DNA from: Candidatus Omnitrophota bacterium
GTDB lineage: Bacteria > Omnitrophota > Gorgyraeia > Zapsychrales > JANLHA01
Reading direction: 5' to 3'
Length of the DNA: 64,000 nucleotides
Assembly: GCA_022711395.1 (NCBI GenBank)
Contig: JAKLFA010000002.1
Span: 451,864 to 515,863, forward strand
This document shows positions 1,033 through 29,452 of the stretch, piece after piece. The first letter of the stretch is position 1; each line of letters starts with the position of its first letter. Made by a program: the position numbers and the translations under genes. The notes under the pieces are model-generated. The model did not search any database. It saw only the letters and a list, made by a program, of their open reading frames with translations, and was not told where the DNA came from.

Positions 1033-1090
1033 TACAGCATAGTTTTTTTATCAATCATATTCATAGCCGTATCATGAAAGGACTTTGTGG

Positions 1091-1999
1091 ATGTCAAAAA
1101 CAGCATTTATTTTTCCGGGGCAGGGCGCCCAATACGTCGGGATGGGCAAAGATCTTTACGAAACGTTCGAAACAGCCAAACAGATCATTGACCAGGCTGA
1201 TCATATTTTGGGAAACGGGCTTAAAGGCGTGATGTTCGAAGGCCCCGAAGAAAAACTCACACAGACCTCATACTGCCAGCCGGCGATCCTCTCGGTGAGC
1301 TATGCGGCAATGACCGTTTATCTGCAGAAATATCCGCAAAGCGCCCCCTCCTTCGTGGCGGGCTTAAGCCTGGGAGAATATTCGGCGCTCGCGGCGAGCG
1401 GCGCGCTTGAGTTCAGCGATACGATCAGGCTCGTCGAGCGGCGCGGCGCCTTTATGAACGAGGCCGCCCAGCTTAAAAAGGGCGCCATGGCCGCTGTGAT
1501 CGGGATGGAACCCCAGGCGATCAAGACAGTCTGCGACGGCTGCGGGGCCGAGGTTGCTAATTTTAACGCGCCGGACCAGACCGTCATCACCGGCGAAGCG
1601 GAGAAGGTCGCGGCCGCTTCCGCGAAGCTCACGGAAGCCGGCGCCAAACGGGTCATCCCCCTTTCGGTCAGCGGAGCGTTCCACTCCTCCCTGATGCAGC
1701 CGGCAGCGGACCGCTTCCAATCGGTCCTGGCAGAAACCCATTTTAAAACCGCGAAGGTCCCTTTGGTCTCTAACGTCGATGCCTCCCCCTGCACGGACCC
1801 GCAACAGATGCGCATCAAGCTGGAAAAACAGATCGTTTCTTCCGTTCAATGGATCAAGACGATCGAATTCATGGCCGGCCAAGGTGTAACAAAATTTATC
1901 GAGATCGGACCGGGAAAAGTCCTCAAAGGCCTCATCCGTAAGATCAACAAAGACCTTGAGGTCATTAATATAGAGAAGGCGGAAGACTTGCTCAAATAA
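1091..1999 (+). CDS. fabD: Malonyl-CoA:ACP transacylase
   Basis: FIFPGQGAQYVGMG and GLSLGEYSALAASG (GHSLGE nucleophile elbow) motifs. AAAGGA SD 9 nt before the ATG at 1091 (the track's TTG at 1085 is probably too far upstream). Confidence 0.9.
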   Translation: MSKTAFIFPGQGAQYVGMGKDLYETFETAKQIIDQADHILGNGLKGVMFEGPEEKLTQTSYCQPAILSVSYAAMTVYLQKYPQSAPSFVAGLSLGEYSALAASGALEFSDTIRLVERRGAFMNEAAQLKKGAMAAVIGMEPQAIKTVCDGCGAEVANFNAPDQTVITGEAEKVAAASAKLTEAGAKRVIPLSVSGAFHSSLMQPAADRFQSVLAETHFKTAKVPLVSNVDASPCTDPQQMRIKLEKQIVSSVQWIKTIEFMAGQGVTKFIEIGPGKVLKGLIRKINKDLEVINIEKAEDLLK

Positions 2000-2017: not shown

Positions 2018-2575
2018 ATGCTGATCGGAAAAAAAGTCCATGAGTTGCGCAAAGCCCGAAAGATGAGCCTGACCGAGCTCGCTGAAAAGACCGGTATCCA
2101 GATCGCGACCTTAAGCCGCATCGAGCACATGAAAATGACCGGCACCCTTCAGTCCCACATGCTGATCGCAAAAGCGTTAGGGATCGAGCTGACCGACCTC
2201 TACCGCGACCTGCCGGGCGCTTCGGCTTTCTCTGAGGCGGAACCCGCTGATGATACTCCCGAGACCGAACGTTTCACCTACAATGACAAGGCCTCCTATG
2301 AGATCCTGGCCAACAATATCCTTTCCAAAAAAATGATGCCCGTGATGCTCAAGATCGAACCCGGCGGGGAGACCCACACGGAACAAAACCAGCCAAGCTC
2401 GGAACGGTTTGTCCTTGTTCTTAACGGAGCCATTGAACTTGTTTTGAAAGATAAAACGATCACATTAAGAAAGAACCACTCGCTGTATTTTGACGCGTCG
2501 TTCCCCCATTCGTTCAAAAACACTGGGGCTGAAACCGCGCGGGTGCTCTCGGTGGCGACACCGGTCACGCTTTAA
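2018..2575 (+). CDS. XRE-family HTH transcriptional regulator with C-terminal cupin domain
   Basis: N-terminal 'LRKARKMSLTELAEKTGIQIATLSRIE' HTH_3 motif and a C-terminal cupin-like beta-rich region. GAGGA SD precedes the ATG. Confidence 0.75.
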   Translation: MLIGKKVHELRKARKMSLTELAEKTGIQIATLSRIEHMKMTGTLQSHMLIAKALGIELTDLYRDLPGASAFSEAEPADDTPETERFTYNDKASYEILANNILSKKMMPVMLKIEPGGETHTEQNQPSSERFVLVLNGAIELVLKDKTITLRKNHSLYFDASFPHSFKNTGAETARVLSVATPVTL

Positions 2576-2590
2576 ATGAAAGGATCTGTC

Positions 2591-2947
2591 ATGACCAAAA
2601 TACTGATCTGTGATGATGAATTGGGAGTGCGCGAATCATTAAAGTTGATCCTGGGGGATTTCTATCCCCTGATCGTGGTGGATAACGGCGAGGCCGCCCT
2701 GGAAGTCCTGAAGAACACGCCTTCGATCAGCCTTGTTTTTATGGATATCAAAATGCCCAAGACCCCGGGGCTTGACGTCCTGGCGAAGATCAAACAACTT
2801 CACCCTCATGTGAAAGTGGTGATCGTTTCCGGCTACAACTCGGTGGAGACCGCCCAGGAGGCCAGCAAGCTGGGCGCTGACGGCTATATCGTTAAGCCCT
2901 TTGACTCAAAAGACGTGCTGGAAAGAGCAAGGAAATATATAAAATAA
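2591..2947 (+). CDS. Single-domain response regulator receiver (CheY-like)
   Basis: 'KILICDDE...LVFMDIKMP...VVIVSGY...GADGYIVKPF' REC signature. AAAGGA SD precedes the ATG at 2591 (the track starts at 2576). Confidence 0.8.
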   Translation: MTKILICDDELGVRESLKLILGDFYPLIVVDNGEAALEVLKNTPSISLVFMDIKMPKTPGLDVLAKIKQLHPHVKVVIVSGYNSVETAQEASKLGADGYIVKPFDSKDVLERARKYIK

Positions 2948-2950
2948 CAT

Positions 2951-4558
2951 ATGGTTATGAACTTAAATCCATTCGCGATTTCAAACCTCATTACAATTGC
3001 CTGTTCGCTCCCCATCGCGGTAATTATTTTTTTATCAAACGAAAAATCGAAACCAGTCTTATACTTCGGCCTCCACTCCTTTTCGATCTTCTGGTGGGGC
3101 TTATTTGCTTTTTTGTCATCGACAGCACCTGATGGATCATCCGCACTAACTCTGCTAAAAGCCGCCTATGCAGGAGTGTTATTTATACCCATCTTTTTTC
3201 TACATTCAATAATCCAAGTATACAACTTTTGGAACAAAATTCTTCTTTGGCTTGGCTATACACAGGCCTCTGTTTTTCTTTTTCTTACAATCAATAATGT
3301 TCTGTTTACACACATTATATCGTCTTTTAATGGCTACTATTACTGTCCAACAAATATTTTTTATCTAATTTCATTTATAATATGGCTCGCTTTTGCAAGC
3401 ATTGCCTTAGTGAAGCTTGTAAGCAATGTTCTCATACCTTACAATCCAAAAGAGTTCGCATACATTCTTGCTGCCATAATAGCCTATTTGAGTGCGGTAA
3501 CAAACTTTCTTCCCACTCTTGGGTTAGAAATTTTTCCTTGGGGGAATTTCTTAATCGGTCCTGGCAATATAATTATGGCCTATTGGATTTTAAAATATCA
3601 ATCTATGAGTTACCGAATTGTGATTCAAAAAAGCCTCATTTATACCTTGTTGATATCAATTACCACCATTGCTTACCTAATCACTGTAATTTTTCTTGAA
3701 AGAATCTCTTCATCAATTCTAAATTATACATCCTTGACTATTACAATTCTTACTGCGTTTATAATCGGTCTTTGTTTTCTCCCGCTAAAAGAAATCCTTC
3801 AAAAATTTATCGATAAATCTATCTTAACCGGAACACCAGCGGAACTGGCCGATCAAAACCGTATCCTAAAGGAAGAAGCAGCCAGAGCGCAGCGGCTCGA
3901 GGCGGTTTCCATCCTTGCCAGCGGGCTGGCCCATGAGATCCGAAATCCTTTGACCGCTATAAAGACGTTCGCCGAATATCTTCCGGAAAAAATGAACGAC
4001 CCGAAATTCCTGAAGCAATTTTCCACGATCGTGGGTCAGGAATCGGAGCGCATCAACACCCTGGTCCAGCAACTTCTGGATTTTGCCAAGCCTTCTGCCC
4101 CGGCCTTTCAAAAGTGCGATATCCGAAAGATCATCAACGAAACACTGGATTTTCTAAGCAGCCGCTTCATTCAATCGCACATCACCCTCAACAATTATGT
4201 TTCAAAAACCACCCCGGTCTGGCTGCGGATCGATCCGAATCAAGTCCGCCAGGCCTTTCTCAACATTTTCATCAATGCGATCGAGGCCATGCCGGACGGC
4301 GGCAGCTTGACGATCCAGGATGAATTCGCTGAAAACTCATCCTACCGGATCGCCATTTCCGATACCGGCCACGGAATAAACGACGACGACCTCAAGCACC
4401 TGTTCAACCCGTTCTACAGCAAAAAAGACGGCGGGACCGGGCTGGGGCTATCGATCACGCATAACATCATTAAAGAACACCAAGGCAGGATCCTTGTGGC
4501 AAGCGTTCCGGGGAAAGGGACAACATTTACGATCGAACTGCCCAAAACCATAGCGTAA
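2951..4558 (+). CDS. Sensor histidine kinase with N-terminal multi-TM (HisKA_7TM-like) domain
   Basis: About 270 aa of TM helices, then HisKA 'LASGLAHEIRNPLTAI' and HATPase_c 'GTGLGLSITHNIIKEHQGRILVASVPGKGTTFTIELP'. Confidence 0.85.
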   Translation: MVMNLNPFAISNLITIACSLPIAVIIFLSNEKSKPVLYFGLHSFSIFWWGLFAFLSSTAPDGSSALTLLKAAYAGVLFIPIFFLHSIIQVYNFWNKILLWLGYTQASVFLFLTINNVLFTHIISSFNGYYYCPTNIFYLISFIIWLAFASIALVKLVSNVLIPYNPKEFAYILAAIIAYLSAVTNFLPTLGLEIFPWGNFLIGPGNIIMAYWILKYQSMSYRIVIQKSLIYTLLISITTIAYLITVIFLERISSSILNYTSLTITILTAFIIGLCFLPLKEILQKFIDKSILTGTPAELADQNRILKEEAARAQRLEAVSILASGLAHEIRNPLTAIKTFAEYLPEKMNDPKFLKQFSTIVGQESERINTLVQQLLDFAKPSAPAFQKCDIRKIINETLDFLSSRFIQSHITLNNYVSKTTPVWLRIDPNQVRQAFLNIFINAIEAMPDGGSLTIQDEFAENSSYRIAISDTGHGINDDDLKHLFNPFYSKKDGGTGLGLSITHNIIKEHQGRILVASVPGKGTTFTIELPKTIA

Positions 4559-4577
4559 AAAATCTTCGCTTTACGCG
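4552..4577. terminator. Weak putative bidirectional hairpin between convergent genes (GCGTAAA...TTTACGC)
   Basis: 7-bp AT-rich inverted repeat spanning the HK stop codon, followed by a T-rich tract. Low stability. Confidence 0.25.
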
Positions 4578-4583
4578 CTTATT

Positions 4584-5831
4584 TTATTCTTCTCTTTTTA
4601 TGTCTTCGCGCTTAACGATCTCAACGATCCCTCCGGCCTTAAAGACGCATTCCAACGCGTCCACCACTTCCGGATGGAACTGCGTTTCCCGGTTACGGAC
4701 GATCTCCTCCATCGCCTGCTGTGGAGTTCGGGACGGCCGGTATGGCCGTTGAGTGACGATCGAATCGAAGGTGTCCGCGACCGCGATGATCGCGGCAATG
4801 ATCGGGATCTCTTCCCCCTTCAACCCGTCGGGGTAGCCCTTTCCGTCATGACGCTCGTGATGATATCGGATCCCGGCCATGCTGCGCTCAAGTTCTGAAA
4901 GCGGCTTTAAGATCGCGACCCCGTCGACCGGATGGCGCTTGACCAGCGCGTATTCTTCAGGCGTCAGGCGCCCGGGCTTGTTCAGGATCGATTCAGGGAC
5001 ACCGATCTTTCCGATATCATGCAGGGTCCCTGCGACATAAAGGTCTTCCATGAACTTTTCATCAAAATGGTATTTCCCGCTTTTGTTCATTTCCTGGGCG
5101 ATCGCCAGGGCATAGCGGGTAACCCCTTCGCTGTGGCCCCTGGTATACTCATCCTTGACTTCGATGGCCGCGCCCAAAGACATGGTCATGCGCAAGAACA
5201 GGTCGTGATTATGCTCGGCCTGGCTCCTGAGCTGGTCAAACAGCTGCGCGTTGCGAAGGGCCATGGCCGTGTCCGAGGCCAGCGCGCCGAAAAAGCTCAG
5301 TTCCTCGGAATCGAATTTTTCACTGCTTTGTTTTTCACCCAATAGAAGCACCGCCAGCAGTTTATCATGATAGATCGCCGGCACACAGGCGACAACGCCT
5401 AAAAGGTCCATCTGGTCGCTGACCTGATGCAGGATCTCTCGCACCTGAGGATCGCATCCATGGCCGTTCAAGAGCCCTTCCTGCCAGATCATTTTGTTCA
5501 TATCATGCCAGAGGATCGCGTGCTTGCTTTGAAAGAGCGGGCGGAACTTCACGTCGCTGAATACTTTTATGATCGGGCTTGAATGGTTAAAGCGCGCGAA
5601 CCCCTGCGGAATGCGATGCCCGGTCTGGCCTTTTGAGATCGCCAAAAGATACTCATTCTTTTCCGGCGAATAAATGATCATGCCGGCGTGCCTGAGCTTA
5701 AGCCGATAGACGATCATGCGGATGATCATCTTGATCAGAAGCTGCGGGTCATGGACCAGGATCATCCCGCGGCTGGCAGCCTCGAGCGCTTCTTTATAGT
5801 CCAGTTTCTTTGAAAAATTCGGTGTTTTCAA
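4584..5831 (-). CDS. HD-GYP c-di-GMP phosphodiesterase with N-terminal GAF-like domain
   Basis: 'HDIGKIGVPESILNKPGRLTPEEYALVKRHP' and 'HHERHDGKGYPDGL' HD-GYP signature. Confidence 0.85.
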   Translation of the reverse strand: MKTPNFSKKLDYKEALEAASRGMILVHDPQLLIKMIIRMIVYRLKLRHAGMIIYSPEKNEYLLAISKGQTGHRIPQGFARFNHSSPIIKVFSDVKFRPLFQSKHAILWHDMNKMIWQEGLLNGHGCDPQVREILHQVSDQMDLLGVVACVPAIYHDKLLAVLLLGEKQSSEKFDSEELSFFGALASDTAMALRNAQLFDQLRSQAEHNHDLFLRMTMSLGAAIEVKDEYTRGHSEGVTRYALAIAQEMNKSGKYHFDEKFMEDLYVAGTLHDIGKIGVPESILNKPGRLTPEEYALVKRHPVDGVAILKPLSELERSMAGIRYHHERHDGKGYPDGLKGEEIPIIAAIIAVADTFDSIVTQRPYRPSRTPQQAMEEIVRNRETQFHPEVVDALECVFKAGGIVEIVKREDIKREE

Positions 5832-5838
5832 GAGTCCG

Positions 5839-6219
5839 TCAAGCCCCCTGCTTTAGCTCTTTCATCACGATCTTCTGCAGCTCCTCAAGGACGAGCGGCT
5901 TGTGAATAAAACCGATGATCCCCAGGCTCCTGGCCTGGTTGATCGTCTCCTCATCTTCAATGCCGCTGACCATGATGACCTTGGTCGGGTCGCCTTCTCC
6001 CCGCATTTTCTGCAGAAACTCCACCCCGGTCATTTCCTCCATGCGGACATCCAAAAGGATCAGGTCAGGGCGCTCTTCCTTCAGAATGTCCAGCGCCTCG
6101 CTGCCGCCGGACGCCGTGAAGACCTGGATCCCCCTTTTTTTAAAATAATTACGGGCGAACTCCCGGATGTCGATCTCATCATCCACGATCAATAACTTGG
6201 ACATTTTCATCCTTTCCAT
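5839..6219 (-). CDS. Single-domain response regulator receiver
   Basis: 'LLIVDDEIDIRE...LILLDVRMEEMTGVEF...VIMVSG...FIHKP' REC motifs. Sits immediately downstream of the HK, with its start codon abutting the HK stop. Confidence 0.8.
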   Translation of the reverse strand: MERMKMSKLLIVDDEIDIREFARNYFKKRGIQVFTASGGSEALDILKEERPDLILLDVRMEEMTGVEFLQKMRGEGDPTKVIMVSGIEDEETINQARSLGIIGFIHKPLVLEELQKIVMKELKQGA

Positions 6220-8439
6220 TTACGCTTGACGCTCTACGCTTTGTATCATATCCTGGTCCAGACCTTCCACCGTCGGAAGAGTAATATAAACACGCGTCCC
6301 TTTGCCGTATTCCGATTTATAAAAAACCTTTCCCTTATGGTTCTCTTCGATCAATTTCTGGATCACATAAAGGCCAAGCCCGGTCCCTTTTTTACTGGAA
6401 AGCTTGGTCGTAAAAAACGGCGTGAAGATCTTTTCCTGGTCTTCAGCCCTGATCCCGATCCCGTTATCTTCCAGCACAATGCGCATGCTGCCCATGCGCG
6501 ACCGTTCAGCCTTGATGGTGATCCGGGGCTCATACCCCTCCTCCTTGAGGTCGCTTTTACGCTGCATCATGGCGTCATAAGCGTTATCGATCATATTAAA
6601 GAACACTTCCTGAAGCTGGGTGAAATTACCGTGGATCTTAGGAAGCCCCGGCTCAAAATCCCTGACGATCGACATTTCGCCGGTCTTGATCTTGAACTGA
6701 GCCATCGTGACCGCTTCATCAATGAGCTCATCGAGCTCAACCTCCCCGAACTGTTCATCGCTCTTGCGGCTGTATTTCAACAGTCCGCGCACGACCTCCC
6801 CGCCCTGGGAAACATTCTCCTGGATGCGGGTCAGGGCGTGCTCAATATCGACCATCATCTCCTTGACCTCATCGGTCATCTTCAGTTTCTTGTTCAGCTG
6901 GATCGTATCCAGAGCGTCTCCGGCGATAAATCCCAACGCGTGCAGTCGGTTATTGATCTGGTGCGACAGGCCATCAGCCATAATACCGATCGTGGCCATC
7001 TTCTCCGCCCTGAAAAGCTGTTCATGGGTCGCCCGCATGTCCTTATAGAACTGCGCGTTCTCGATCGCCAGCCCCGCCTGGTTTGACAGGATCATAAAAA
7101 CCGCCAGATCATCCTGGCTGTAAAGCTCTCCGCTGACCTTCTTGCCCATGACCATCACCGCGATCAGTTTTTCGTCAATAAAACACGGCACGATCAACTC
7201 CGCGTGAAGCGCGGACATCTGTTCTTCCAACTCCTGCAGCTTAAGATCTTTGAAATCCTGCGCCCGCTGCTGCACCTCTGAAAATACGATCGGAGCGCGG
7301 ATCTTTTTAAGCGCCTTAAGGACGCGAGAGTCGGACGCAATAGTTTGAGGGACATCGGTCCTTTCGTTGCGGAACCGGGACGCCTCTAATTTATACTCTT
7401 TTGATTTTCGGTCGCTTAAATAAATAAAGCTGTGCTCAATGCGCACTGAACGGGTCACCACCCGCACGATCATATCCAGCAGTTTATCCATGTCCTTGAT
7501 CCGGCCCATGCCGGTCGAGGCCTGACGCAGTGTGCTCTGATACCGCCTCTGATCCTGAAACAGCTTCTCTTCCGCCCGGCGCTGGATCGCCAAATAAATA
7601 AACGGCCCTGCCGTTGCCATGACTGTCAAAAGGACCATCGGGGAAAGCCACCACAGTTCACCAAAATGCATCCTCAACCATTCCTGACAGCCGATTGCAA
7701 AAGCGTAGGGGATTCCTAAGATTAGGGAATAAACTGCAACAAAAATTGATGTCCTCGTTATAACCAACGAAACATTCATCAGGCGATATTTAATGACTGA
7801 ATAAAAAGTCATCCCTGTAAATGCAATCATAAATAGAAAACCCATCGGATATAAATCAAATCCATAATTTGGCACAAAATCAACTGCCGCAAATGACCCC
7901 ACGATCGTCCCCCAAAAAATATATCTCGATCGAATAATATGCATATAATGCTTTGTCGAAAAAAAAGATGCCCTAAGAAGAGCAACCGAAATAAGCGTAA
8001 ATAAAAGTGAAAAATAGGATAAAAAGGATATGTGAGGTATTAAATTAACTCTAGGATAATCCCCCCATACGAAAGAATTTAATCCTTTGATTAAAAAGTC
8101 TTGTTTATAGAAATTAAAAAAAACGAAGAAACATGGAAATGGAAGGACCCAATAAAAAAGTCTAGATAAAAACTTGTCTTCCAAAAATTCGCCCGTATAT
8201 AACAACCAAATAATTGGAATAAATGCAATTCCAATATAGCCAACTTTAAACATAAATATCTTAAATATTTCTCCTTCCACAAGAAAAGCAACTGAATAGC
8301 TAAAAAGCCAAACAAATATACAAAAACAAAATAAAAAAAAGATGCGATTCAAACTAACTCGTCTATTTCGAATAAAAATAGTTAAGCCAAAAACAAAAAC
8401 AACAAGTGAGGAAAAAAATAAGGAAAAAGCATGCATCAT
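6220..8439 (-). CDS. Sensor histidine kinase: N-terminal 7TM domain, GAF, HisKA, HATPase_c
   Basis: AT-rich N-terminal multi-TM region paralogous to that of 2951..4558. HisKA 'GLSHQINNRLHAL'. HATPase 'GTGLGLYVIQKLIEENHKGKVFYKSEYGKGTRVYITLP'. Confidence 0.85.
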   Translation of the reverse strand: MMHAFSLFFSSLVVFVFGLTIFIRNRRVSLNRIFFLFCFCIFVWLFSYSVAFLVEGEIFKIFMFKVGYIGIAFIPIIWLLYTGEFLEDKFLSRLFYWVLPFPCFFVFFNFYKQDFLIKGLNSFVWGDYPRVNLIPHISFLSYFSLLFTLISVALLRASFFSTKHYMHIIRSRYIFWGTIVGSFAAVDFVPNYGFDLYPMGFLFMIAFTGMTFYSVIKYRLMNVSLVITRTSIFVAVYSLILGIPYAFAIGCQEWLRMHFGELWWLSPMVLLTVMATAGPFIYLAIQRRAEEKLFQDQRRYQSTLRQASTGMGRIKDMDKLLDMIVRVVTRSVRIEHSFIYLSDRKSKEYKLEASRFRNERTDVPQTIASDSRVLKALKKIRAPIVFSEVQQRAQDFKDLKLQELEEQMSALHAELIVPCFIDEKLIAVMVMGKKVSGELYSQDDLAVFMILSNQAGLAIENAQFYKDMRATHEQLFRAEKMATIGIMADGLSHQINNRLHALGFIAGDALDTIQLNKKLKMTDEVKEMMVDIEHALTRIQENVSQGGEVVRGLLKYSRKSDEQFGEVELDELIDEAVTMAQFKIKTGEMSIVRDFEPGLPKIHGNFTQLQEVFFNMIDNAYDAMMQRKSDLKEEGYEPRITIKAERSRMGSMRIVLEDNGIGIRAEDQEKIFTPFFTTKLSSKKGTGLGLYVIQKLIEENHKGKVFYKSEYGKGTRVYITLPTVEGLDQDMIQSVERQA

Positions 8440-8452
8440 ATAATGAACTTCC

Positions 8453-9511
8453 TTATAGATATTTAACTGCAGGAAATATACGATATTTAAGAATCAAATC
8501 AGCCAAACCTTCTAAATTTTCAGAACTAATTTCACCTCTTCCTAATGAAACCAAATCAAAACGCTTTGAAAAAGCCAATATAATAGCTTCTGTCAAACAA
8601 CCATAAATTGCATTTTGCGGAAAAAAGGATTTCCATTTGCTGTCAAAAATTTTTTTATAAAATGGCAACTCAGAGGTTCCTCCAAAGAATAATGTCTTCT
8701 TGGCAGGAAAACTGGTCAATCCACTCTTCTCAAACGAAACATTTGGGGGCATGCCAATATCACAAATTATTGATCCCTCTTTAAAGTCTGAATATCCCAA
8801 CAATGCATCAACCGAGCTCGCAGCCGCAATTATTAAATCTGCATCCGAAACCGCTTCCCTTGCATCAGTAAAACAAACAAACTGATCAAACCCTTCCGCC
8901 TTTAGTTTTTTACAAATTTCTGAATCATCAGAGATTGTCCTTGAGCAAAGTCTTAAAAACTTTGCCTTCTTAGAATAAATTCTTGCACAAATAGACCCGA
9001 TGTCTCCGGTGGCCCCAATTATGGCAACCGAAAGCTCTCGCACTTTTTTACCATGGCGCCCCGCTTCTTTCTCTAATGCCATTGATGCCAATACCGCAGT
9101 CGTCGCATTCCCTGAAGTTATTGGAATAGATGTCATTTTTGAAACATCCCTCCCACCGTTGGTAACAATTGATGTAAATCCCGCCAACGTTATTATGTTG
9201 ACATTCTCCTGTTCAAAAATTTTAAAACAATCTATTATTTTTTTAATCGTATTTTCTTTTTCAATTAACATTTGTCGAGGAAAAATAGGGAGCAATACCC
9301 CAAGAATTTCGATCTCATAATTATTATGGATCAAATTACAAACATGCATTATCTTGTGAGGAGGGATTCTAACAATGTTGTGCGTTATAAAAGAATCATC
9401 CAGAAATTTAAGAATCCAATTCCCAAAAAAAGTGTATATTTTGGGGAATAAATCCCGAAAACTTTCAGTGTTTAGAGGGTGAATTATAATCCCGATTTTT
9501 ACTCTTTCCAT
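8453..9511 (-). CDS. Acyl-ACP reductase (AAR)-family NAD(P)-dependent reductase homologue
   Basis: By-eye collinear alignment with cyanobacterial AAR: GIIIHPLNTE~GLIGHLTSLE, LAGFTSIV~LGGFTSII, TSGNATTAVL~TTGNTHTAYV, IIGATGDIGS~VVGATGDIGS, YGCLTEAII~FACFAEAML (catalytic Cys retained). GC about 38% versus about 60% in neighbours. Confidence 0.6.
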   Translation of the reverse strand: MERVKIGIIIHPLNTESFRDLFPKIYTFFGNWILKFLDDSFITHNIVRIPPHKIMHVCNLIHNNYEIEILGVLLPIFPRQMLIEKENTIKKIIDCFKIFEQENVNIITLAGFTSIVTNGGRDVSKMTSIPITSGNATTAVLASMALEKEAGRHGKKVRELSVAIIGATGDIGSICARIYSKKAKFLRLCSRTISDDSEICKKLKAEGFDQFVCFTDAREAVSDADLIIAAASSVDALLGYSDFKEGSIICDIGMPPNVSFEKSGLTSFPAKKTLFFGGTSELPFYKKIFDSKWKSFFPQNAIYGCLTEAIILAFSKRFDLVSLGRGEISSENLEGLADLILKYRIFPAVKYL

Positions 9512-10728
9512 TTTTTTAACACCAAAGAGAAATTGTTCCCCCCAAACGCAAGGGAATTATTCAATACAACTCTAACCCTATGTTTCCTAAACGTATTCGG
9601 CACACAATCAATATCACACTCCGGGTCCGGGGTCTCATAATTGATCGTTGGCGGGATCTTTTGATCCTTGATCGCCAAGCAGCAGGCTATGGATTCTAAT
9701 GCCGATGCCGCGCCCATCGTATGCCCCAGCATGGATTTGATCGAACTGACCGGGATGTTTTTCAACCGCTCTCCAAAGACAGCTTTAAAGACTTCGCATT
9801 CTGTCTTGTCATTTTCAGGCGTTCCTGTCCCGTGGGCATTAATATAATCGACATCCTCCGGACTCAAACCCGCATCGTTTAAGGCCTTTCTGATAGCTTT
9901 GATCCCACCCTTTGCTTGAGGCTGAGTCAAGTGAAAAGCATCCGATGCCGCTCCACATCCCAAAATTTCCGCATAGATCAGCGCCCCACGCTTACGGGCA
10001 TGTTCAAGCTCTTCCAAAACAAGAATTCCCGCTCCTTCTCCTGGGATCATGCCTTGACGGTTCTTGTCAAAAGGCCTGCACTTTTGCGAATCGATAGCAA
10101 CCAAACGATGAAAACCTGTAAAAGCAATACGAGATAAAGGGTCAACCCCCCCCGCAAACATGCAATTAGTAAAACCCGTTCGTATCATATCTGTCGCTCT
10201 ACCGACAGCAAAATTCCCCGCAGCACAAGCATTCGCGAAAAGATGGCTATTATTTTTAATATCAAAGACATGTGCAAAATTTGAACTTATTGAATTTGCA
10301 GGATAAGTTAGTGGTAAAATTTTTTCCAATGTATCACATCCTATAGTCGTATCAATTTCTACGCATTTTTCAATAACCTGCCCTTCCCCCATGGTAGTTC
10401 CCACGCAAAGACCCGCATTAGTTTCTTTTAAATCAGCCTTAGCAAGCATCGAATCTTTTAAAGCCAACCCCCCCGCAACAATCAACATTTGAGAGGCTCG
10501 TCCAAAATGCTTGAAATTATTTTTTGGGCAAAATATTTTAAAATCAAAATCTCTAACTTGGCCAACCAATTTCCTATCATATTTTGAAGAATCCACATAA
10601 TCAACTTCCGATATCCCGCTCTTCCCTGCCAGCAAATTTTTCCAAAATTCCTGCCAGCCGATGCCGATCGAGGACACAACCCCCAGGCCGGTGACCACCA
10701 CTCTGCGTTTTACATTGTTATTTCGCAT
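9499..10728 (-). CDS. Beta-ketoacyl-ACP synthase I/II-like (FabF/FabB family)
   Basis: VVVTGLGVVS, active-site 'ANACAAGN' Cys, 'HGTGT' and 'GHTMGAAS' His residues, 'AFGGNNFS'. Start is more likely MRNNNVKRRVVV (10728) than the track's 10791, which would read through the GTGTC repeat. Confidence 0.8.
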   Translation of the reverse strand: MRNNNVKRRVVVTGLGVVSSIGIGWQEFWKNLLAGKSGISEVDYVDSSKYDRKLVGQVRDFDFKIFCPKNNFKHFGRASQMLIVAGGLALKDSMLAKADLKETNAGLCVGTTMGEGQVIEKCVEIDTTIGCDTLEKILPLTYPANSISSNFAHVFDIKNNSHLFANACAAGNFAVGRATDMIRTGFTNCMFAGGVDPLSRIAFTGFHRLVAIDSQKCRPFDKNRQGMIPGEGAGILVLEELEHARKRGALIYAEILGCGAASDAFHLTQPQAKGGIKAIRKALNDAGLSPEDVDYINAHGTGTPENDKTECEVFKAVFGERLKNIPVSSIKSMLGHTMGAASALESIACCLAIKDQKIPPTINYETPDPECDIDCVPNTFRKHRVRVVLNNSLAFGGNNFSLVLKKWKE

Positions 10729-10783
10729 TTCCAATCTCTTGTTTCGTATTATACCTTTTACTCCGTGTGTCCTGTGTCCTGTG

Positions 10784-11239
10784 TCATGCATCTTGCCTTA
10801 AAAACGAATAAAACACCTGCGCCTGCCCCAATTTCTCATTTTGCCCGCGCGTCATCTCGATATCCGCATACCCGCCGCTCGCCATCACCCGCCCCTGTAA
10901 AACTTCCATCCTCAGCACATCCCCCACTTCCGCAGGAAAGTTGATATCACATTTGATCTTGCCCAGCACGATCGTGCGCCGCTCCGGATCACCCCGTTCG
11001 ATCAAAGTCCGATACACAAAAAAAGACGCCGCCTGGGCCGCGGCCTCGATCATCAGCGTCGGCGGAAAAATGACCGAACCATCCGGCTGGCGCACAAGAT
11101 AGGGATCATTCGTCGTCACGTTTCTGACAGCGGTCAAACCTTTCCCAGGAACAAAATCCACAATAGAATCAATGAACAGAAAAGGAGGCTTTTGCGGCAG
11201 AACTGCGCGGATATCATCCTGGTCAAACACCGTGTTCAT
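10784..11239 (-). CDS. FabZ-like hotdog-fold protein with catalytic His replaced by Gln
   Basis: Gap-free alignment to E. coli FabZ: LPHRFPFLLVD...[26 protein letters not shown] versus LPQKPPFLFID...NDPYLVRQPDGSVIFPPTLMIEAAAQ. Both His positions (PHR and GHF) are Gln; the Glu is conserved. AAGGAGAG SD before the ATG at 11239. Confidence 0.7.
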   Translation of the reverse strand: MNTVFDQDDIRAVLPQKPPFLFIDSIVDFVPGKGLTAVRNVTTNDPYLVRQPDGSVIFPPTLMIEAAAQAASFFVYRTLIERGDPERRTIVLGKIKCDINFPAEVGDVLRMEVLQGRVMASGGYADIEMTRGQNEKLGQAQVFYSFLRQDA

Positions 11240-11367
11240 CAAACCGCTCTCCTTTGAGCAGTGTTCCCAAGACATATAAGTTATTTAAATAGAAATAGAT
11301 ATAGATATACTAGACGAACTTATTATAGAAGTGATTTTTATGACGGTCAAACAGAAAGAAGAAAAAA

Positions 11368-12342
11368 CTACCACTTGATCAGATTGGCGGCCGTGACAAG
11401 CCCCGAGCCGAAGGTGACCATAACGACCACGCTTCCGGGCTTGATCATCCCCTCTTCCACCGCTTCATAAAGAGCGATCGCCACCGCGGCCGCTGAGGTA
11501 TTACCATATTTCTGGATGTTGATGAAAAACTTATCTTTTGAAACGCCGGCCCGCTTCGCCACCGCGGAAATGATCCGGTCATTGGCCTGATGCGGAACAA
11601 CACAGTCCACATCTTCCAGTTTAAGGCCGGCTTTTTCAACGACCAGATCCACCGCGTCCGCCATCGAAGTGACCGCGACCTTAAACAGCTCCTGCCCCTG
11701 CATCACAATGGCTGGCTTCTGGATCTTCGTGTTGAACTCCAACTGGGCGGGCTCTTCGGTCTTGACATACAGAAGCTCATGGAACTCCCCGGCTGAATGA
11801 AGATATTCCGAAAGGATCCCCCTGCCCTCTTCAACCGGAGCAAGGATGCAGGCCCCGGCGCCGTCCCCAAAAAGCACGCAGGTGGCGCGGTCGCTCCAAT
11901 CAAGCAGGTTGGTGGCCTTCTCAGCGGCGATGACCAGGGCGGTCTTGAACATCCCCGATGTCAAATATTGTTTAGCCGTCGTGATCGCGCATAAAAACCC
12001 CGAACAGGCTGCGCTGACATCGAACGCGGCCGCGTTCTTCGCGCCGATGGCGCTCTGGACTTTGCAGGCAACAGCGGGAAAATTGGAATCCGTGCTGGCG
12101 GTCGCCACAATGATCAGCTCGATCCCCTCAGCAGGAACCGGCGAACCGTCCAAGGCGCTTTTCGCGGCCTCAATGGCCATATCCGTTGTGGTTTCATCCC
12201 GACGGGCCAGGCGGCGCTCCTTGATCCCGGTCCGTGTCGTGATCCACTCATCGGATGTTTCAACGACCTTTTCCAGGTCATGGTTGGTCACGATCCGTTC
12301 AGGCACGTATTTTCCGACAGCAACGATCCCTATATTTTTCAT
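11368..12342 (-). CDS. fabH: Beta-ketoacyl-ACP synthase III
   Basis: N-terminal 'MKNIGIVAVGKYVPERIVTNHDLEKVVETSDEWITTRTGIKER', then 'AACSGF' Cys and C-terminal 'HQANDRII...GNTSAAAV'. Confidence 0.9.
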   Translation of the reverse strand: MKNIGIVAVGKYVPERIVTNHDLEKVVETSDEWITTRTGIKERRLARRDETTTDMAIEAAKSALDGSPVPAEGIELIIVATASTDSNFPAVACKVQSAIGAKNAAAFDVSAACSGFLCAITTAKQYLTSGMFKTALVIAAEKATNLLDWSDRATCVLFGDGAGACILAPVEEGRGILSEYLHSAGEFHELLYVKTEEPAQLEFNTKIQKPAIVMQGQELFKVAVTSMADAVDLVVEKAGLKLEDVDCVVPHQANDRIISAVAKRAGVSKDKFFINIQKYGNTSAAAVAIALYEAVEEGMIKPGSVVVMVTFGSGLVTAANLIKW

Positions 12343-13343
12343 GCAAAACGTCCGATCTCTTTGCGCATATGTTCAATGACGTTATGTTCAACCTCGCGGC
12401 GTGCGGCGCGGATGGCGTTCTTGATCGCCTTGGCATCCGACCGCCCGTGGCTGATCATGACGATCCCGTCCACGCCCAAAAGCGGCGCCCCGCCGTATTC
12501 CGAATAATCCGCGTAACGCCTGATCTGCTTCAGGCGGGATTTCATCAGCCAGGCGCCGAGCATCGCCACCGGGCTTTTTTTGAGCTCCCGTTTTAAAAGC
12601 GCGATCGCTGATTCCGCCAGGCTTTCTGAAACCTTCAAGACCACATTTCCCACGAACCCGTCGCAGACGATGCAATCGCAATCCCCGCGGTAGATCCCGC
12701 TCCCCTCGACATTGCCGACAAAATTCTGCGGCAAACGCTCCGATAAAATCCGGTGGATCTCCTTAACAAAATCCGTCCCCTTCGTCTCTTCCTCGCCTAC
12801 ATTGAGCAAACCGACGCTGGGGTTCTCGATCCCCAACATGTCCCTGGCGTAAACATGCGCCAGCAGTGCCGACTGGACCAGATGCTGCGGTTTGGGGTCC
12901 GTATTGGCCCCCACGTCCAGCACAAGAGCGAAGCCTTTCAGCGTCGGCAAGACCGCACCGATCGCCGGACGTTCGACCCCCTGCATCATTCCCAAAAAGA
13001 CCGTCGCTGCCGCCACCACCGCGCCCGTGTTTCCCGCTGAAATGAAGCCCCTGCAATCCGGATCCGCCTTTAACAGATTGATCCCCACCGAAACGGAAGA
13101 ATTGCGTTTCTTGCGGATCGTTACCGTCGCCGGATCGTCCATCGCCACCACGTCCGGAGCATCCACAATACTGACCAACTCTTTAGGATAATCATACTGG
13201 CTCAGCTCCTGAAGGATCCTTTCCTTGGGCCCGGTCAGGACAACGCTGATCCCAAATTCCTTGACGGCCTGGATCGTCCCGTCCACAACAGCCTGCGGCG
13301 CATGATCCCCACCCATGGCATCAACAACGATTTTCATAAACAC
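12339..13343 (-). CDS. plsX: Phosphate acyltransferase PlsX
   Basis: 'KIVVDAMGGDHAPQAVV' N-terminus and overall PlsX collinearity. Overlaps the fabH start by 4 nt. True start may be MKIVVD at 13337. Confidence 0.9.
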   Translation of the reverse strand: MFMKIVVDAMGGDHAPQAVVDGTIQAVKEFGISVVLTGPKERILQELSQYDYPKELVSIVDAPDVVAMDDPATVTIRKKRNSSVSVGINLLKADPDCRGFISAGNTGAVVAAATVFLGMMQGVERPAIGAVLPTLKGFALVLDVGANTDPKPQHLVQSALLAHVYARDMLGIENPSVGLLNVGEEETKGTDFVKEIHRILSERLPQNFVGNVEGSGIYRGDCDCIVCDGFVGNVVLKVSESLAESAIALLKRELKKSPVAMLGAWLMKSRLKQIRRYADYSEYGGAPLLGVDGIVMISHGRSDAKAIKNAIRAARREVEHNVIEHMRKEIGRFA

Positions 13344-13388
13344 CTCGTATTTCGTGGCGTATAGATTTTTGTGAGCCGAACTGACAGG

Positions 13389-13589
13389 TTAGTCTTTTGC
13401 TTTTTTCTCTTTTGCTTCGACGGTCACGACCACATTCTTCTTGTAGTGGCCGCAAAACGGGCAGACCCGGTGCGAGATCACCTGCTTGCCGCAATGGCTG
13501 CACGGCTGCATTTTAGGCAGAACAACGCCCTGATGAGTGCGGCGTTTGCGTCCGCGTTGTTTTGAATGTTGTCTTTTTGGATTTGGCAT
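13389..13589 (-). CDS. rpmF: 50S ribosomal protein L32
   Basis: 'MPNPKRQHSKQRGRKRRTH...CSHCGKQVISHRVCPFCGHY' with Zn-ribbon Cys pairs. GGAGT SD before the ATG at 13589 (the track's longer ORF from 13661 is too long). Confidence 0.85.
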   Translation of the reverse strand: MPNPKRQHSKQRGRKRRTHQGVVLPKMQPCSHCGKQVISHRVCPFCGHYKKNVVVTVEAKEKKAKD

Positions 13590-13657
13590 GCTTGACTCCG
13601 TTTTTTCGAATGACACAAGACACATGACACACGACGCAAGAGATTCAAAATCCTGTG

Positions 13658-14089
13658 TCATGTGTCCTGTGTCGTGTGTCCTAAGTTACAGTTACACTGT
13701 TTCTGATTTAAATTTTGCCCGCACTGAAGGCACAACCCCTTACAATCATTTCGGCAAAGCTCGAACACTGAATTGGCAATGATCAGCTCTTCCCTTAGAT
13801 CATCTTTAAACTCAACATATTCCGTCGATGAATCGATATCGAATGCCAGCTCGAACCTGTCCGTTTTTTGCCGCTCGAACTCTTCCAGGCAGCGTGAGCA
13901 CGTCAAAGCGTAGGTCGCTTTTACTTCAAAAGCCGCAAGGACCTCATCACCGGCGCGACTGAAGACAGCCTCGACTTTTAAAGGGCCTCTTGCCTTCAGC
14001 GCGTCCTGCGGAAGGTCCAATTCCCCAGCGGTCAGAACTCGGCTGTATTGAAGCCCCCGGTCCGAAATATTGCGTAACGGGATCCTCAT
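13658..14089 (-). CDS. yceD: YceD/DUF177 family protein (23S rRNA accumulation factor)
   Basis: Conserved position upstream of rpmF-plsX-fabH. C-terminal CxxC...CxxC motifs 'CSRCLEEF...CKGLCLQCGQNLN'. The last ~8 codons are encoded by the GTGTC repeat. Confidence 0.7.
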   Translation of the reverse strand: MRIPLRNISDRGLQYSRVLTAGELDLPQDALKARGPLKVEAVFSRAGDEVLAAFEVKATYALTCSRCLEEFERQKTDRFELAFDIDSSTEYVEFKDDLREELIIANSVFELCRNDCKGLCLQCGQNLNQKQCNCNLGHTTQDT

Positions 14090-24186: not shown

Positions 24187-24304
24187 TCCCGGCAACGTTC
24201 TACTCTCCCAAAGCCTTGCGACTTAAGTACCATCGACCTCAGCGGGCTTAACTGCCGTGTTCGGAATGGGAACGGGTGTTTCCCCGCTAGCATAATCGCC
24301 GAGA
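24187..24304 (-). rRNA. rrf: 5S ribosomal RNA
   Basis: Reverse complement contains conserved 5S segments 'CCGAACACGGCAGTTAAGCCCGCTG' and '...GGGAGAGTAGAACGTTGCCGGG'. Confidence 0.8.
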
Positions 24305-24374
24305 AAATCTAAATTTCCAGTTATGTGATAATTGATGTATGACCCGTAAGCATACTAGACATGATGTATTTATG

Positions 24375-27335
<2,961 letters not shown>

Positions 27336-27483
27336 TACTATGACTAGTAAACCTACGAAAATTGCATACACCAATTATCACATAACTGTCAAAGAACGAT
27401 TTAACGCCAAAATGGCGCAACAGGAACAGAATTCCCGTTTAAATCTATCTTGAATTTTATTGCCAAACCATAACACCTAAATT

Positions 27484-27559
27484 TGGTGGAGCTGAGGAGG
27501 ATCGAACTCCTGACCCTCTGCTTGCAAAGCAGATGCTCTCCCAGCTGAGCTACAGCCCC
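27484..27559 (-). tRNA. tRNA-Ala (anticodon UGC)
   Basis: Reverse complement GGGGCTGTAGCTCAGCTGGGAGAGCATCTGCTTTGCAAGCAGAGGGTCAGGAGTTCGATCCTCCTCAGCTCCACCA. Cloverleaf with encoded CCA. Confidence 0.9.
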
Positions 27560-27604
27560 ACATGAAAGTCACTATACACAACTTTTTGTGCTTCGTGTCT
27601 TAAA

Positions 27605-27681
27605 TGGTGGGCCCGAGAGGATTCGAACCGCTGACCCCCGCGTTATCAGCACGGTGCTCTAACCACCTGAGCTACGGGCCC
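27605..27681 (-). tRNA. tRNA-Ile (anticodon GAU)
   Basis: Reverse complement GGGCCCGTAGCTCAGGTGGTTAGAGCACCGTGCTGATAACGCGGGGGTCAGCGGTTCGAATCCTCTCGGGCCCACCA. Confidence 0.9.
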
Positions 27682-27867
27682 AAAACCCAGCAAATTCGAT
27701 CCTTCGATCTCATTAAATTTAGAAAGCCAAGCTCTTTGAAAGAGCTTTTCCTTTGACCACAAGTTCGTGTGAGAACGAACTCATTGCCGTCTTTCCCTCG
27801 GGCAGGGTTCCTAGCATCATTATGATTGCCTATTCAATGAATAGTTTCTCGAAAACGAGAAAATAGA

Positions 27868-29452
<1,585 letters not shown>

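Follow-up and report, generated by a model that had tools for sequence, protein, structure and literature searches.

Identification of the gene

The 64,000-nt stretch of DNA analysed here (positions 451,864 to 515,863 of contig JAKLFA010000002.1 from a Candidatus Omnitrophota bacterium; referred to as the window) carries a gene for a FabZ-like hotdog protein in which the catalytic histidine of the FabZ dehydratases is missing. The gene, given the working name hotQ, lies on the minus strand between fabH and a gene for a β-ketoacyl-acyl carrier protein synthase (KAS). The enclosing open reading frame (ORF; 10784..11275) would encode 163 residues. All orthologues share a start at an internal Met (MNxVFDQ), and in hotQ the Shine–Dalgarno sequence AAAGGAGAG is found 8 nt 5' of this Met. 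The real coding sequence is therefore 10784-11239 (151 residues), as was given when the window was first read from its letters alone (the original prediction).

Several lines of evidence identify the product as a FabZ homologue, as originally proposed. An Escherichia coli FabZ query matches only the hotQ ORF across the window (phmmer, E = 1e-15). The protein scores 35.4 bits against the FabA-like hotdog domain PF07977 in a Pfam scan, above the gathering threshold of 23, and its relatives score 34-54 bits. The AlphaFold2 model (input alignment of 41 sequences) has a mean predicted local distance difference test score of 92.4, and the 50 best Foldseek matches of this model in the Protein Data Bank (PDB) are all FabZ structures (TM-scores of 0.72-0.83), consistent with a single hotdog fold of the FabZ type. 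The protein does not reach the cut-offs of the FabZ equivalog families (56.3 bits versus 113 for NF000582 and 50.3 versus 155.15 for TIGR01750). The same is true of ten of the ten His-less family members tested (56-98 bits), and none of these ten is claimed by any other named family in the family-profile scans.

Active-site residues

A profile of hotQ and four orthologues was aligned to the solved FabZ structures 8AYD, 6N3P and 4H4G, and the active-site region is ungapped in these alignments. Gln51 (CAG, 11087-11089) occupies the position of the catalytic His in the G-H-F-P loop, and Gln16 (CAA, 11192-11194) lies opposite the His of the LPHR motif. Glu65 (GAG, 11045-11047) lies opposite the catalytic Glu, with Gln69 completing the E-x3-Q helix. 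At the N-terminus of this helix, where FabZ has Pro-Gly, the protein has Pro59-Pro60, the Gly being replaced by Pro60. The loop is 14 residues long in hotQ, and no placement of a gap restores a His at the catalytic position. The alignments thus uphold the original prediction in its central point, the replacement of the catalytic His by Gln with retention of the Glu, and its view that canonical stand-alone dehydration is unlikely is sound, since the catalytic His is gone. Both ACP-docking positions are also non-basic: in the alignment via 8AYD and 6N3P, Lys102 and Arg121 of E. coli FabZ correspond to Asn100 and Met119.

The original prediction had cautioned that a sequencing error might account for the Gln codon, given that a His-to-Gln change takes a single third-position substitution. 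Four independent assemblies agree on CAG at codon 51 and on CAA or CAG at codon 16, and all six close homologues in public data have Gln at both positions. Pairwise ratios of nonsynonymous to synonymous substitution (dN/dS) among the hotQ orthologues are 0.11-0.29, as expected under purifying selection, and the His is missing from the whole clade described below. The Gln codons are therefore due neither to sequencing error nor to the decay of a pseudogene, explanations to which we give practically no credence.

A His-less family in the Omnitrophota

An exhaustive hidden Markov model (HMM) search of 1.84 billion representative sequences returned a single cluster above 1e-30, which is the clade to which hotQ itself belongs. 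The next tier consists of about 50 clusters with scores of 75-110 bits and full-length coverage, all of which lack the catalytic His. The residue found in its place may be Y, R, L, E, P, K, G, N, T, A, C, V, D, F or Q. The Gln in hotQ is therefore real as a residue, but its reading as a meaningful substitute for His is rejected, because the position is hypervariable and the loop carries insertions across the family. Gln16 fares similarly. The substitution that was predicted there stands, but its significance does not, because LPQ replaces LPH in 34 of the 83 His-bearing FabZ-like matches of the same search and in the active anammox FabZ (8AYD).

In a neighbour-joining tree, 49 of 50 His-less sequences fall into one clade, which is recovered with a Jaccard index of at least 0.85 in 100 of 100 bootstraps. 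The sub-clade of hotQ is nested within this clade, and its sister group is wholly His-less in 99 of 100 bootstraps. Because the His-less sequences cluster in this way, with the sub-clade of hotQ inside, the tree indicates that the His was lost in a single, ancient event. When the GTDB species were scanned with one genome each, 34 loci were obtained. The strong matches among them all come from Candidatus Omnitrophota, the labels being 'uncultured Planctomycetales' for some and 'uncultured Gammaproteobacteria' for one. The searches and the tree place hotQ in a clade of FabZ-derived, putative pseudo-dehydratases that extends across the Omnitrophota. No description of such a His-less FabZ family was found in the searchable literature, and the family is apparently undescribed. 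The Omnitrophota genomics literature was found to state that fatty-acid synthesis is encoded, and nothing more specific was found there.

Truncated N-terminal copies of the His-less hotdog gene occur a few kilobases upstream of the intact gene at two loci (L007 2760-2978 and L027 5308-5622). They look like remnants of local duplications.

Conservation across the active site

Conservation was compared between 48 His-less and 36 His-type single-domain sequences as the mean column entropy. The His loop is far more variable in the His-less set (3.13 bits, compared with 1.67 bits in the His-type set) and ranges from 10 to 57 residues in length, whereas in the His-type set it is fixed at 14. In contrast, the central helix (0.99 versus 1.15 bits), the N-terminal LPxxxPF motif (0.99 versus 1.08 bits) and the β2 AVKNxT motif (1.29 versus 1.46 bits) are at least as well conserved in the His-less set as in the His-type set. 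The Glu and Gln of the E-x3-Q helix are 100% conserved in both sets. The catalytic His is 100% conserved in the His-type relatives and missing throughout the His-less clade, and the glycine of the Pro-Gly pair, which is 97% conserved in the His-type sequences, is replaced by Glu, Pro or Gln. The column conservation of the His-less family shows no newly conserved polar residue beyond those of FabZ. As a separate observation, 15-43 additional residues, partly of low complexity, are found exactly at the former His loop in several sequences (L027 7910-8539, L012 7683-8372, P0032, P0059, P0050 and P0014).

In the FabA dimer, the His and the oxyanion amide of the Pro-Gly pair come from one subunit of an active site and the acidic residue from the other. 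Each site of a FabZ dimer likewise combines the His loop of one subunit (and, by analogy with FabA, its oxyanion amide) with the Glu on the central helix of the other. The FabZ tunnel is built from two subunits (ACP-complex paper, PMC5143422). Set against this two-subunit architecture, the family has lost what it would lend to a site of its own, namely the His, the GHFP loop and the Gly. It has kept, under strong constraint, what it would offer in trans (the Glu-x3-Gln helix and the N-terminal and β2 tunnel motifs). We refer to this selective loss and retention as the half-site signature.

Genomic context

The features of the window are listed in Table 1. In about 30 loci the usual gene order is recG-rsmD-coaD-yceD-rpmF-plsX-fabH-fabD-[His-less hotdog]-KAS-[variable genes]-sensor kinase-response regulator-HD-GYP. 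In most Omnitrophota fabD directly precedes the hotdog gene; in the sub-clade of hotQ it lies beyond the signalling block. The adjacency of the hotdog and KAS genes is invariant in these loci, the KAS being the sole invariant neighbour, and the two genes often overlap by 1-50 nt at their stop and start codons. In the window a gap of 55 nt separates them.

Table 1. Features of the window; positions are counted from its first nucleotide
Feature	Position	Strand	Remarks
fabD (malonyl-CoA:ACP transacylase)	1085..1999	+	Far side of the sensor kinase block
AAR/PigE-N-terminal-domain-like NAD(P)-dependent acyl-thioester reductase	8453..9511	-	352 aa
β-Ketoacyl-ACP synthase, amxFabF2-type (see text)	9499..10728	-	409 aa from Met22 of a 430-aa ORF
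hotQ, His-less FabZ-fold protein	10784..11239	-	151 aa; Gln16, Gln51, Pro60, Glu65, Gln69
Candidate σ70-like promoter, TTGACC-17 nt-TATAAT	11322..11350	-	11/12 consensus match; 128-nt AT-rich fabH-hotdog spacer
fabH (KAS III)	11368..12342	-	Upstream neighbour; TIGR00747 398 bits, cut-off 292
plsX	12339..13343	-	First gene of the conserved lipid block; TIGR00182 337 bits, cut-off 243
rRNA operon, complete (16S, two tRNAs, 23S, 5S)	24187-29452	-

The candidate promoter is the best match within 8000-13800, as judged by consensus match alone, and the unit of hotdog, KAS and reductase genes may have its own transcription start there. A homology search of the 64-kb window found no canonical fabZ, acpP or fabG and no second KAS gene, and no ACP gene was found in the window or in any of the His-less loci. 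The rest of the window carries the rRNA operon, which accounts for the ORF-free stretch, together with glycogen-metabolism and signalling genes.

The signalling block (2018-8439) keeps its synteny with the lipid genes throughout the phylum, and the same block is present in L001, L003, L006 and most other loci. It comprises a seven-transmembrane (7TM) GAF histidine kinase, a response regulator, an HD-GYP protein, a second 7TM kinase with a regulator, and an XRE-cupin regulator beside fabD. The synteny hints that the signalling block and the lipid genes may be regulated together. At three loci a small HTH_17 (excisionase/MerR-like) gene stands directly 5' of the His-less hotdog gene (L008 2881-3072, L009 353-547 and L010 180-374). 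A gene of the same type is found upstream of the second fab locus described below (L053 4487-4711), and it is possible that it encodes a shared regulator of both fab loci. In L018 (9138-9757), L017 (432-1051) and L035 (9266-9888), fabD and the hotdog gene are separated by an inserted nucleotidyltransferase/HepT-like toxin-antitoxin pair, and in L016 a gene of the 23S rRNA-IVP family lies between the hotdog and KAS genes.

The adjacent ketosynthase and the variable slot

In the KAS encoded next to hotQ, the Cys-His-His triad, the Lys and the gating Phe have all been preserved. The protein scores under the cut-off of TIGR03150 (408.5 bits versus 493.75) and over that of PRK07314 (406.6 versus 387). 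Among solved structures its best match is chain B of PDB entry 9S5H (415 bits), ahead of Bacillus subtilis FabF (327 bits, the best canonical FabF), Iga11 (316 bits) and E. coli FabF (298 bits). FabB and other KAS I types reach at most 197 bits. The second KAS chain of the same entry (9S5H_C) scores 409 bits against a Cys-less KAS from the Omnitrophota, and entry 9S5I contains an ACP chain. From the two KAS chains and the ACP chain, rather than from the title of the entry, we infer that 9S5H and 9S5I contain the heterodimer of amxFabF2 and amxFabFmut. These anammox proteins form an active/inactive ketosynthase paralogue pair with amxACP (preprint 10.64898/2026.05.19.726425). With 9S5H_B assigned in this way, the adjacent KAS would be of the amxFabF2 type and not a FabB or canonical FabF. 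The FabA-FabB analogy drawn in the original prediction does not hold, and the adjacency instead mirrors the amxFabZ-amxFabF2 pair.

The original prediction had also pointed to the AAR-like gene that follows the KAS gene. The reductase aligns with the N-terminal domain of PigE and with cyanobacterial AAR (PDB entries 4PPM and 6JZU), with scores below the cut-offs of both families (105.6 bits for PigE and 70.5 bits for AcACP_reductase). Its Gly-Cys-x-x-Glu motif (Cys304) lines up with the Gly-Cys-x-x-Glu of the PigE N-terminal domain. Judging from the coordinates, Cys304 probably corresponds to AAR Cys294. The predicted neighbours are therefore present, but the AAR-like gene is not a fixed partner. 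The GC content of the reductase region is 0.27-0.42, compared with about 0.5 around it, and close relatives have a different gene in this slot: a 4HBT_2 thioesterase-like gene (L003), an NAD_binding_4 reductase (L001) or a methyltransferase (L006). Because of the low GC content and these exchanges, a recent acquisition or replacement of the reductase gene is suggested.

Over the genomes as a whole, the slot contains second Cys-bearing KAS-like genes, PDH/amine-oxidase-like FAD enzymes, S-adenosylmethionine (SAM) methyltransferases, NAD_binding_4 reductases, AAR-like reductases, 4HBT_2 thioesterase-like proteins and a FabG-like gene. A gene for chain release or tailoring (a reductase, thioesterase-like protein or methyltransferase) almost always follows the KAS gene. 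The second, divergent KAS-like gene is 26-29% identical to the first (L012 10797-12068, L018 11681-12961, L019 6527-7789, L025 12530-13834 and L013 1693-2991). Its product keeps the Cys and both His residues, with altered His motifs and an altered Phe-Gly-Gly gating motif.

A second fab locus

His-bearing FabZs annotated as Omnitrophota do occur. They are encoded at a second locus, together with ACP, FabG and KAS genes, in the order Cys-less KAS-(FabG)-ACP-FabZ-active KAS-hydrolase-PDH-like (L047 4494-10015, L050 3954-7623, L053 1970-8936 and L054/L055). The hydrolase is of the α/β type, the PDH-like protein is a FAD enzyme and the active KAS is amxFabF2-like. The FabZ and the ACP of this locus have anammox amxFabZ and amxACP as their best solved relatives. 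The hallmarks of amxFabZ, namely the LPQ motif, the non-basic positive-patch positions and a hydrophobic x-K-L-M-x-x-G-G segment, are found both in the second-locus FabZs and in the His-less family. The adjacency of hotdog and KAS genes is also seen at the second locus, where the FabZ is of the active, His-bearing type. The simplest history would be that an amxFabZ-amxFabF2-like pair was duplicated into the plsX operon and that the copy then lost its His half-site.

The second Omnitrophota locus mirrors 'Cluster I', the putative ladderane cluster of the anammox bacteria. In L053 a B12-binding radical SAM enzyme and a CMAS-like methyltransferase are encoded upstream of it. The cluster has been called unique to ladderane producers (2026 preprint). 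Four ORFs that resemble the B12 radical SAM enzyme of L053 flank a KAS-ACP-FabZ(His)-KAS cluster in a metagenome-assembled genome assigned to the Bacillota (L038 321-14805). This cluster is possibly a further amx-like lipid locus, one that lies beyond the Planctomycetes-Verrucomicrobia-Chlamydiae (PVC) group.

Function of the His-less protein

The reading that we tentatively favour is that the His-less protein is a pseudo-dehydratase subunit. With its Glu helix it would complement, in trans, an amx-type FabZ that has the His and is the product of another locus, much as in the ApeI/ApeP pair. We consider this quite possible, if somewhat short of probable, and the non-catalytic or partner role named in the original prediction was a sensible direction. 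The His-less protein would assemble with the FabZ of the second fab locus into a hetero-oligomer with one competent site per dimer, formed by the His of the partner and the Glu of the His-less protein. The tunnel wall of this site would be set by the helix of the His-less protein, which could then act as a specificity or chain-length partner in dehydration, the dehydratase counterpart of the ketosynthase chain-length factor. The presumed co-expression with the amxFabF2-type KAS and the acyl-thioester reductase suggests that the module of hotdog protein, KAS and release or tailoring enzyme draws on one particular pool of acyl-ACP, whose chains would be released as aldehyde, alcohol or acid.

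The half-site signature, the purifying selection, the single origin, the high-confidence FabZ fold and the existence of His-bearing, amx-type FabZs at the second locus all argue for a trans-acting subunit. For its ketosynthase the same enzyme system already relies on an active/inactive paralogue pair, amxFabF2 with amxFabFmut (preprint 10.64898/2026.05.19.726425), and the Cys-less partner is present in the Omnitrophota. That both iterative enzymes of the Omnitrophota amx-type synthase have dead-paralogue partners, a Cys-less FabF and a His-less FabZ, is a broader proposal that we regard as rather doubtful. A precedent for a trans-acting subunit is provided by ApeI/ApeP, FabZ-like dehydratases reported to form heterodimers that contain one active site (PMC8041823). 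Double FabZ proteins of about 300 residues, in which one half lacks the catalytic His, were also found (P0067, P0091, P0097, P0133, P0139, P0155, P0057 and P0123). The loss is complementary in P0123, where the N-terminal half has the Glu only and the C-terminal half has the His and Pro-Gly only. As Rosetta-stone evidence the fused proteins were rejected, since their preference for the His-less profile is weak, and they serve as an analogy only.

Several points weigh against a trans-acting subunit. Known heteromeric hotdog partners (ApeI/ApeP and HadA/B/C) are usually encoded together, and no His-bearing FabZ was found beside the His-less gene in the roughly 30 loci or within the 64-kb window. 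The five His-type FabZs that were traced to their loci lie in assemblies other than those found for the His-less protein. The fused double FabZ proteins are not clearly members of the His-less clade, and the basic ACP-docking residues of canonical FabZ are missing from hotQ. Both are also missing from amxFabZ, which is nevertheless active with its own ACP (PMC10139942). Finally, the KAS gene is the one neighbour that never varies, and its start codon often overlaps the stop codon of the hotdog gene; a role alongside the KAS would account for this just as well.

Such a role would be that of a non-catalytic binder of an acyl-ACP (for example 3-hydroxyacyl-ACP), as a homo-oligomer or bound to the KAS, which shields the intermediate or hands it to the KAS and the release enzyme, in line with the gatekeeper idea of the original prediction. 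The invariant adjacency in about 30 loci with its frequent codon overlap, the release or tailoring gene that nearly always follows, the conserved tunnel-lining motifs and the lack of a His partner encoded nearby are all consistent with it. The adjacency may simply have been inherited, however, as it is also found with the active FabZ of the second locus. Moreover, the invariant buried Glu and Gln are not obviously needed for pure binding. A homodimer would also have the hypervariable loop as a wall of each of its two tunnels, an arrangement that sits uneasily with a conserved binding site. We regard a non-catalytic binder as rather unlikely.

The invariance of Glu65 and Gln69 might alternatively reflect a different chemistry that needs the Glu only, such as acyl-ACP thioester hydrolysis, decarboxylation or isomerisation. 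Other hotdog enzymes operate in this manner; in the hotdog thioesterases an Asp or Glu acts in concert with a helix N-terminus. AmcE, the cispentacin cyclizing enzyme (NF058663), is a FabZ-like hotdog protein that acts as a decarboxylase (PMC10698177), and hotQ has a weak NCBIfam match to it. The match was rejected as an assignment: the score of 30.2 bits is far under the cut-off of 140, and AmcE keeps its His (His66; PMC10698177). The absence of a newly conserved polar residue and the lack of constraint on the His-loop half of the pocket also speak against this chemistry, and the isomerisation by FabA relies on the same His. It appears improbable.

A stand-alone 3-hydroxyacyl-ACP dehydratase with another general base would fit the FabZ fold, the retained Glu and the fab operon setting. 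FabZ His mutants are generally inactive, though, and the loop of the His-less family holds no conserved candidate base; with a score that is half of the FabZ equivalog cut-off (56 versus 113), we consider this very improbable. An H48N variant of amxFabZ has been crystallized alongside the wild type (PDB entry 8AYI).

Implications

Pseudo-enzyme partners are known among the ketosynthase chain-length factors and among some hotdog dehydratases (ApeI/ApeP and HadA/C). The searchable literature yielded no case of a His-less FabZ that has become fixed in the core plsX-fabH-fabD operon of a whole uncultured phylum. If the protein is indeed a trans-acting half-site subunit, it would offer a simple handle on chain length and the fate of intermediates in type II synthases. 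If both enzymes have dead partners, it would be the first 'chain-length/specificity factor' of a FabZ-type dehydratase in the primary fab operon phylum-wide, and the enzyme set of ladderane Cluster I would not be unique to ladderane producers. The similarities tie Omnitrophota lipid synthesis to the anammox 'ladderane' set (amxFabZ, amxACP, amxFabF2/FabFmut, the PDH-like enzyme and the B12 radical SAM enzyme), and these homologues bear on the specificity of the cluster for ladderanes. For annotation, the His-less proteins should not carry the FabZ label.

Comparison with known systems

With canonical FabZ (NF000582 and TIGR01750) hotQ shares the fold, the catalytic Glu helix, the tunnel motifs and the fab operon context. 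It differs in having lost the His, the GHFP loop, the Pro-Gly and the basic ACP-docking residues, and in reaching half of the curated cut-off. A more distant parallel is found in the mycobacterial HadAB and HadBC dehydratases, in which HadA and HadC (and HadD) are non-catalytic hotdog subunits that work with a catalytic paralogue and set chain-length specificity. A HadBD heterodimer is the subject of a published paper (PMC10949391). Unlike hotQ, HadA and HadC are MaoC-type hotdog proteins encoded by adjacent genes, and no sequence relationship to hotQ was detected. The pair of amxFabF2 and amxFabFmut, with 9S5H and 9S5I assigned as above, illustrates the principle of an active paralogue combined with a dead one. 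It concerns the neighbouring KAS and not the hotdog protein, and the window has no gene for a Cys-less KAS partner.

ApeI and ApeP come closest to the mode of action proposed for hotQ, as FabZ-like hotdog paralogues that form a heterodimer with a single site (PMC8041823). They belong to an aryl-polyene system that also uses a heterodimer of ketosynthase and chain-length factor. Unlike the partners envisaged for hotQ, ApeI and ApeP are encoded in one cluster, and the likeness is one of mechanism and not of family membership. Membership of the ApeP family (PF22817, threshold 27) was considered and rejected: hotQ has no match at E <= 0.1, one relative scores 18.1 bits and the precomputed matches of homologues are flagged as weak.

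The best solved relative of the family profile is amxFabZ (68 bits; PDB entries 8AYD, 7QV0 and 8AYB), the anammox-specific FabZ of the putative ladderane cluster (PMC10139942). It differs from hotQ in keeping His48, the GHFP loop and the Pro-Gly, none of which hotQ has, in being an active dehydratase and in having an adjacent amxACP, whereas no ACP gene adjoins hotQ. Where amxFabZ has a tunnel-blocking Ile, most members of the His-less family have a bulky Leu and the sub-clade of hotQ has Ser72. The two proteins are alike in the LPQ-K motif near the N-terminus and in the non-basic residues at both positive-patch positions, and both genes lie directly upstream of a gene for a ketosynthase that we assign to the amxFabF2 type.

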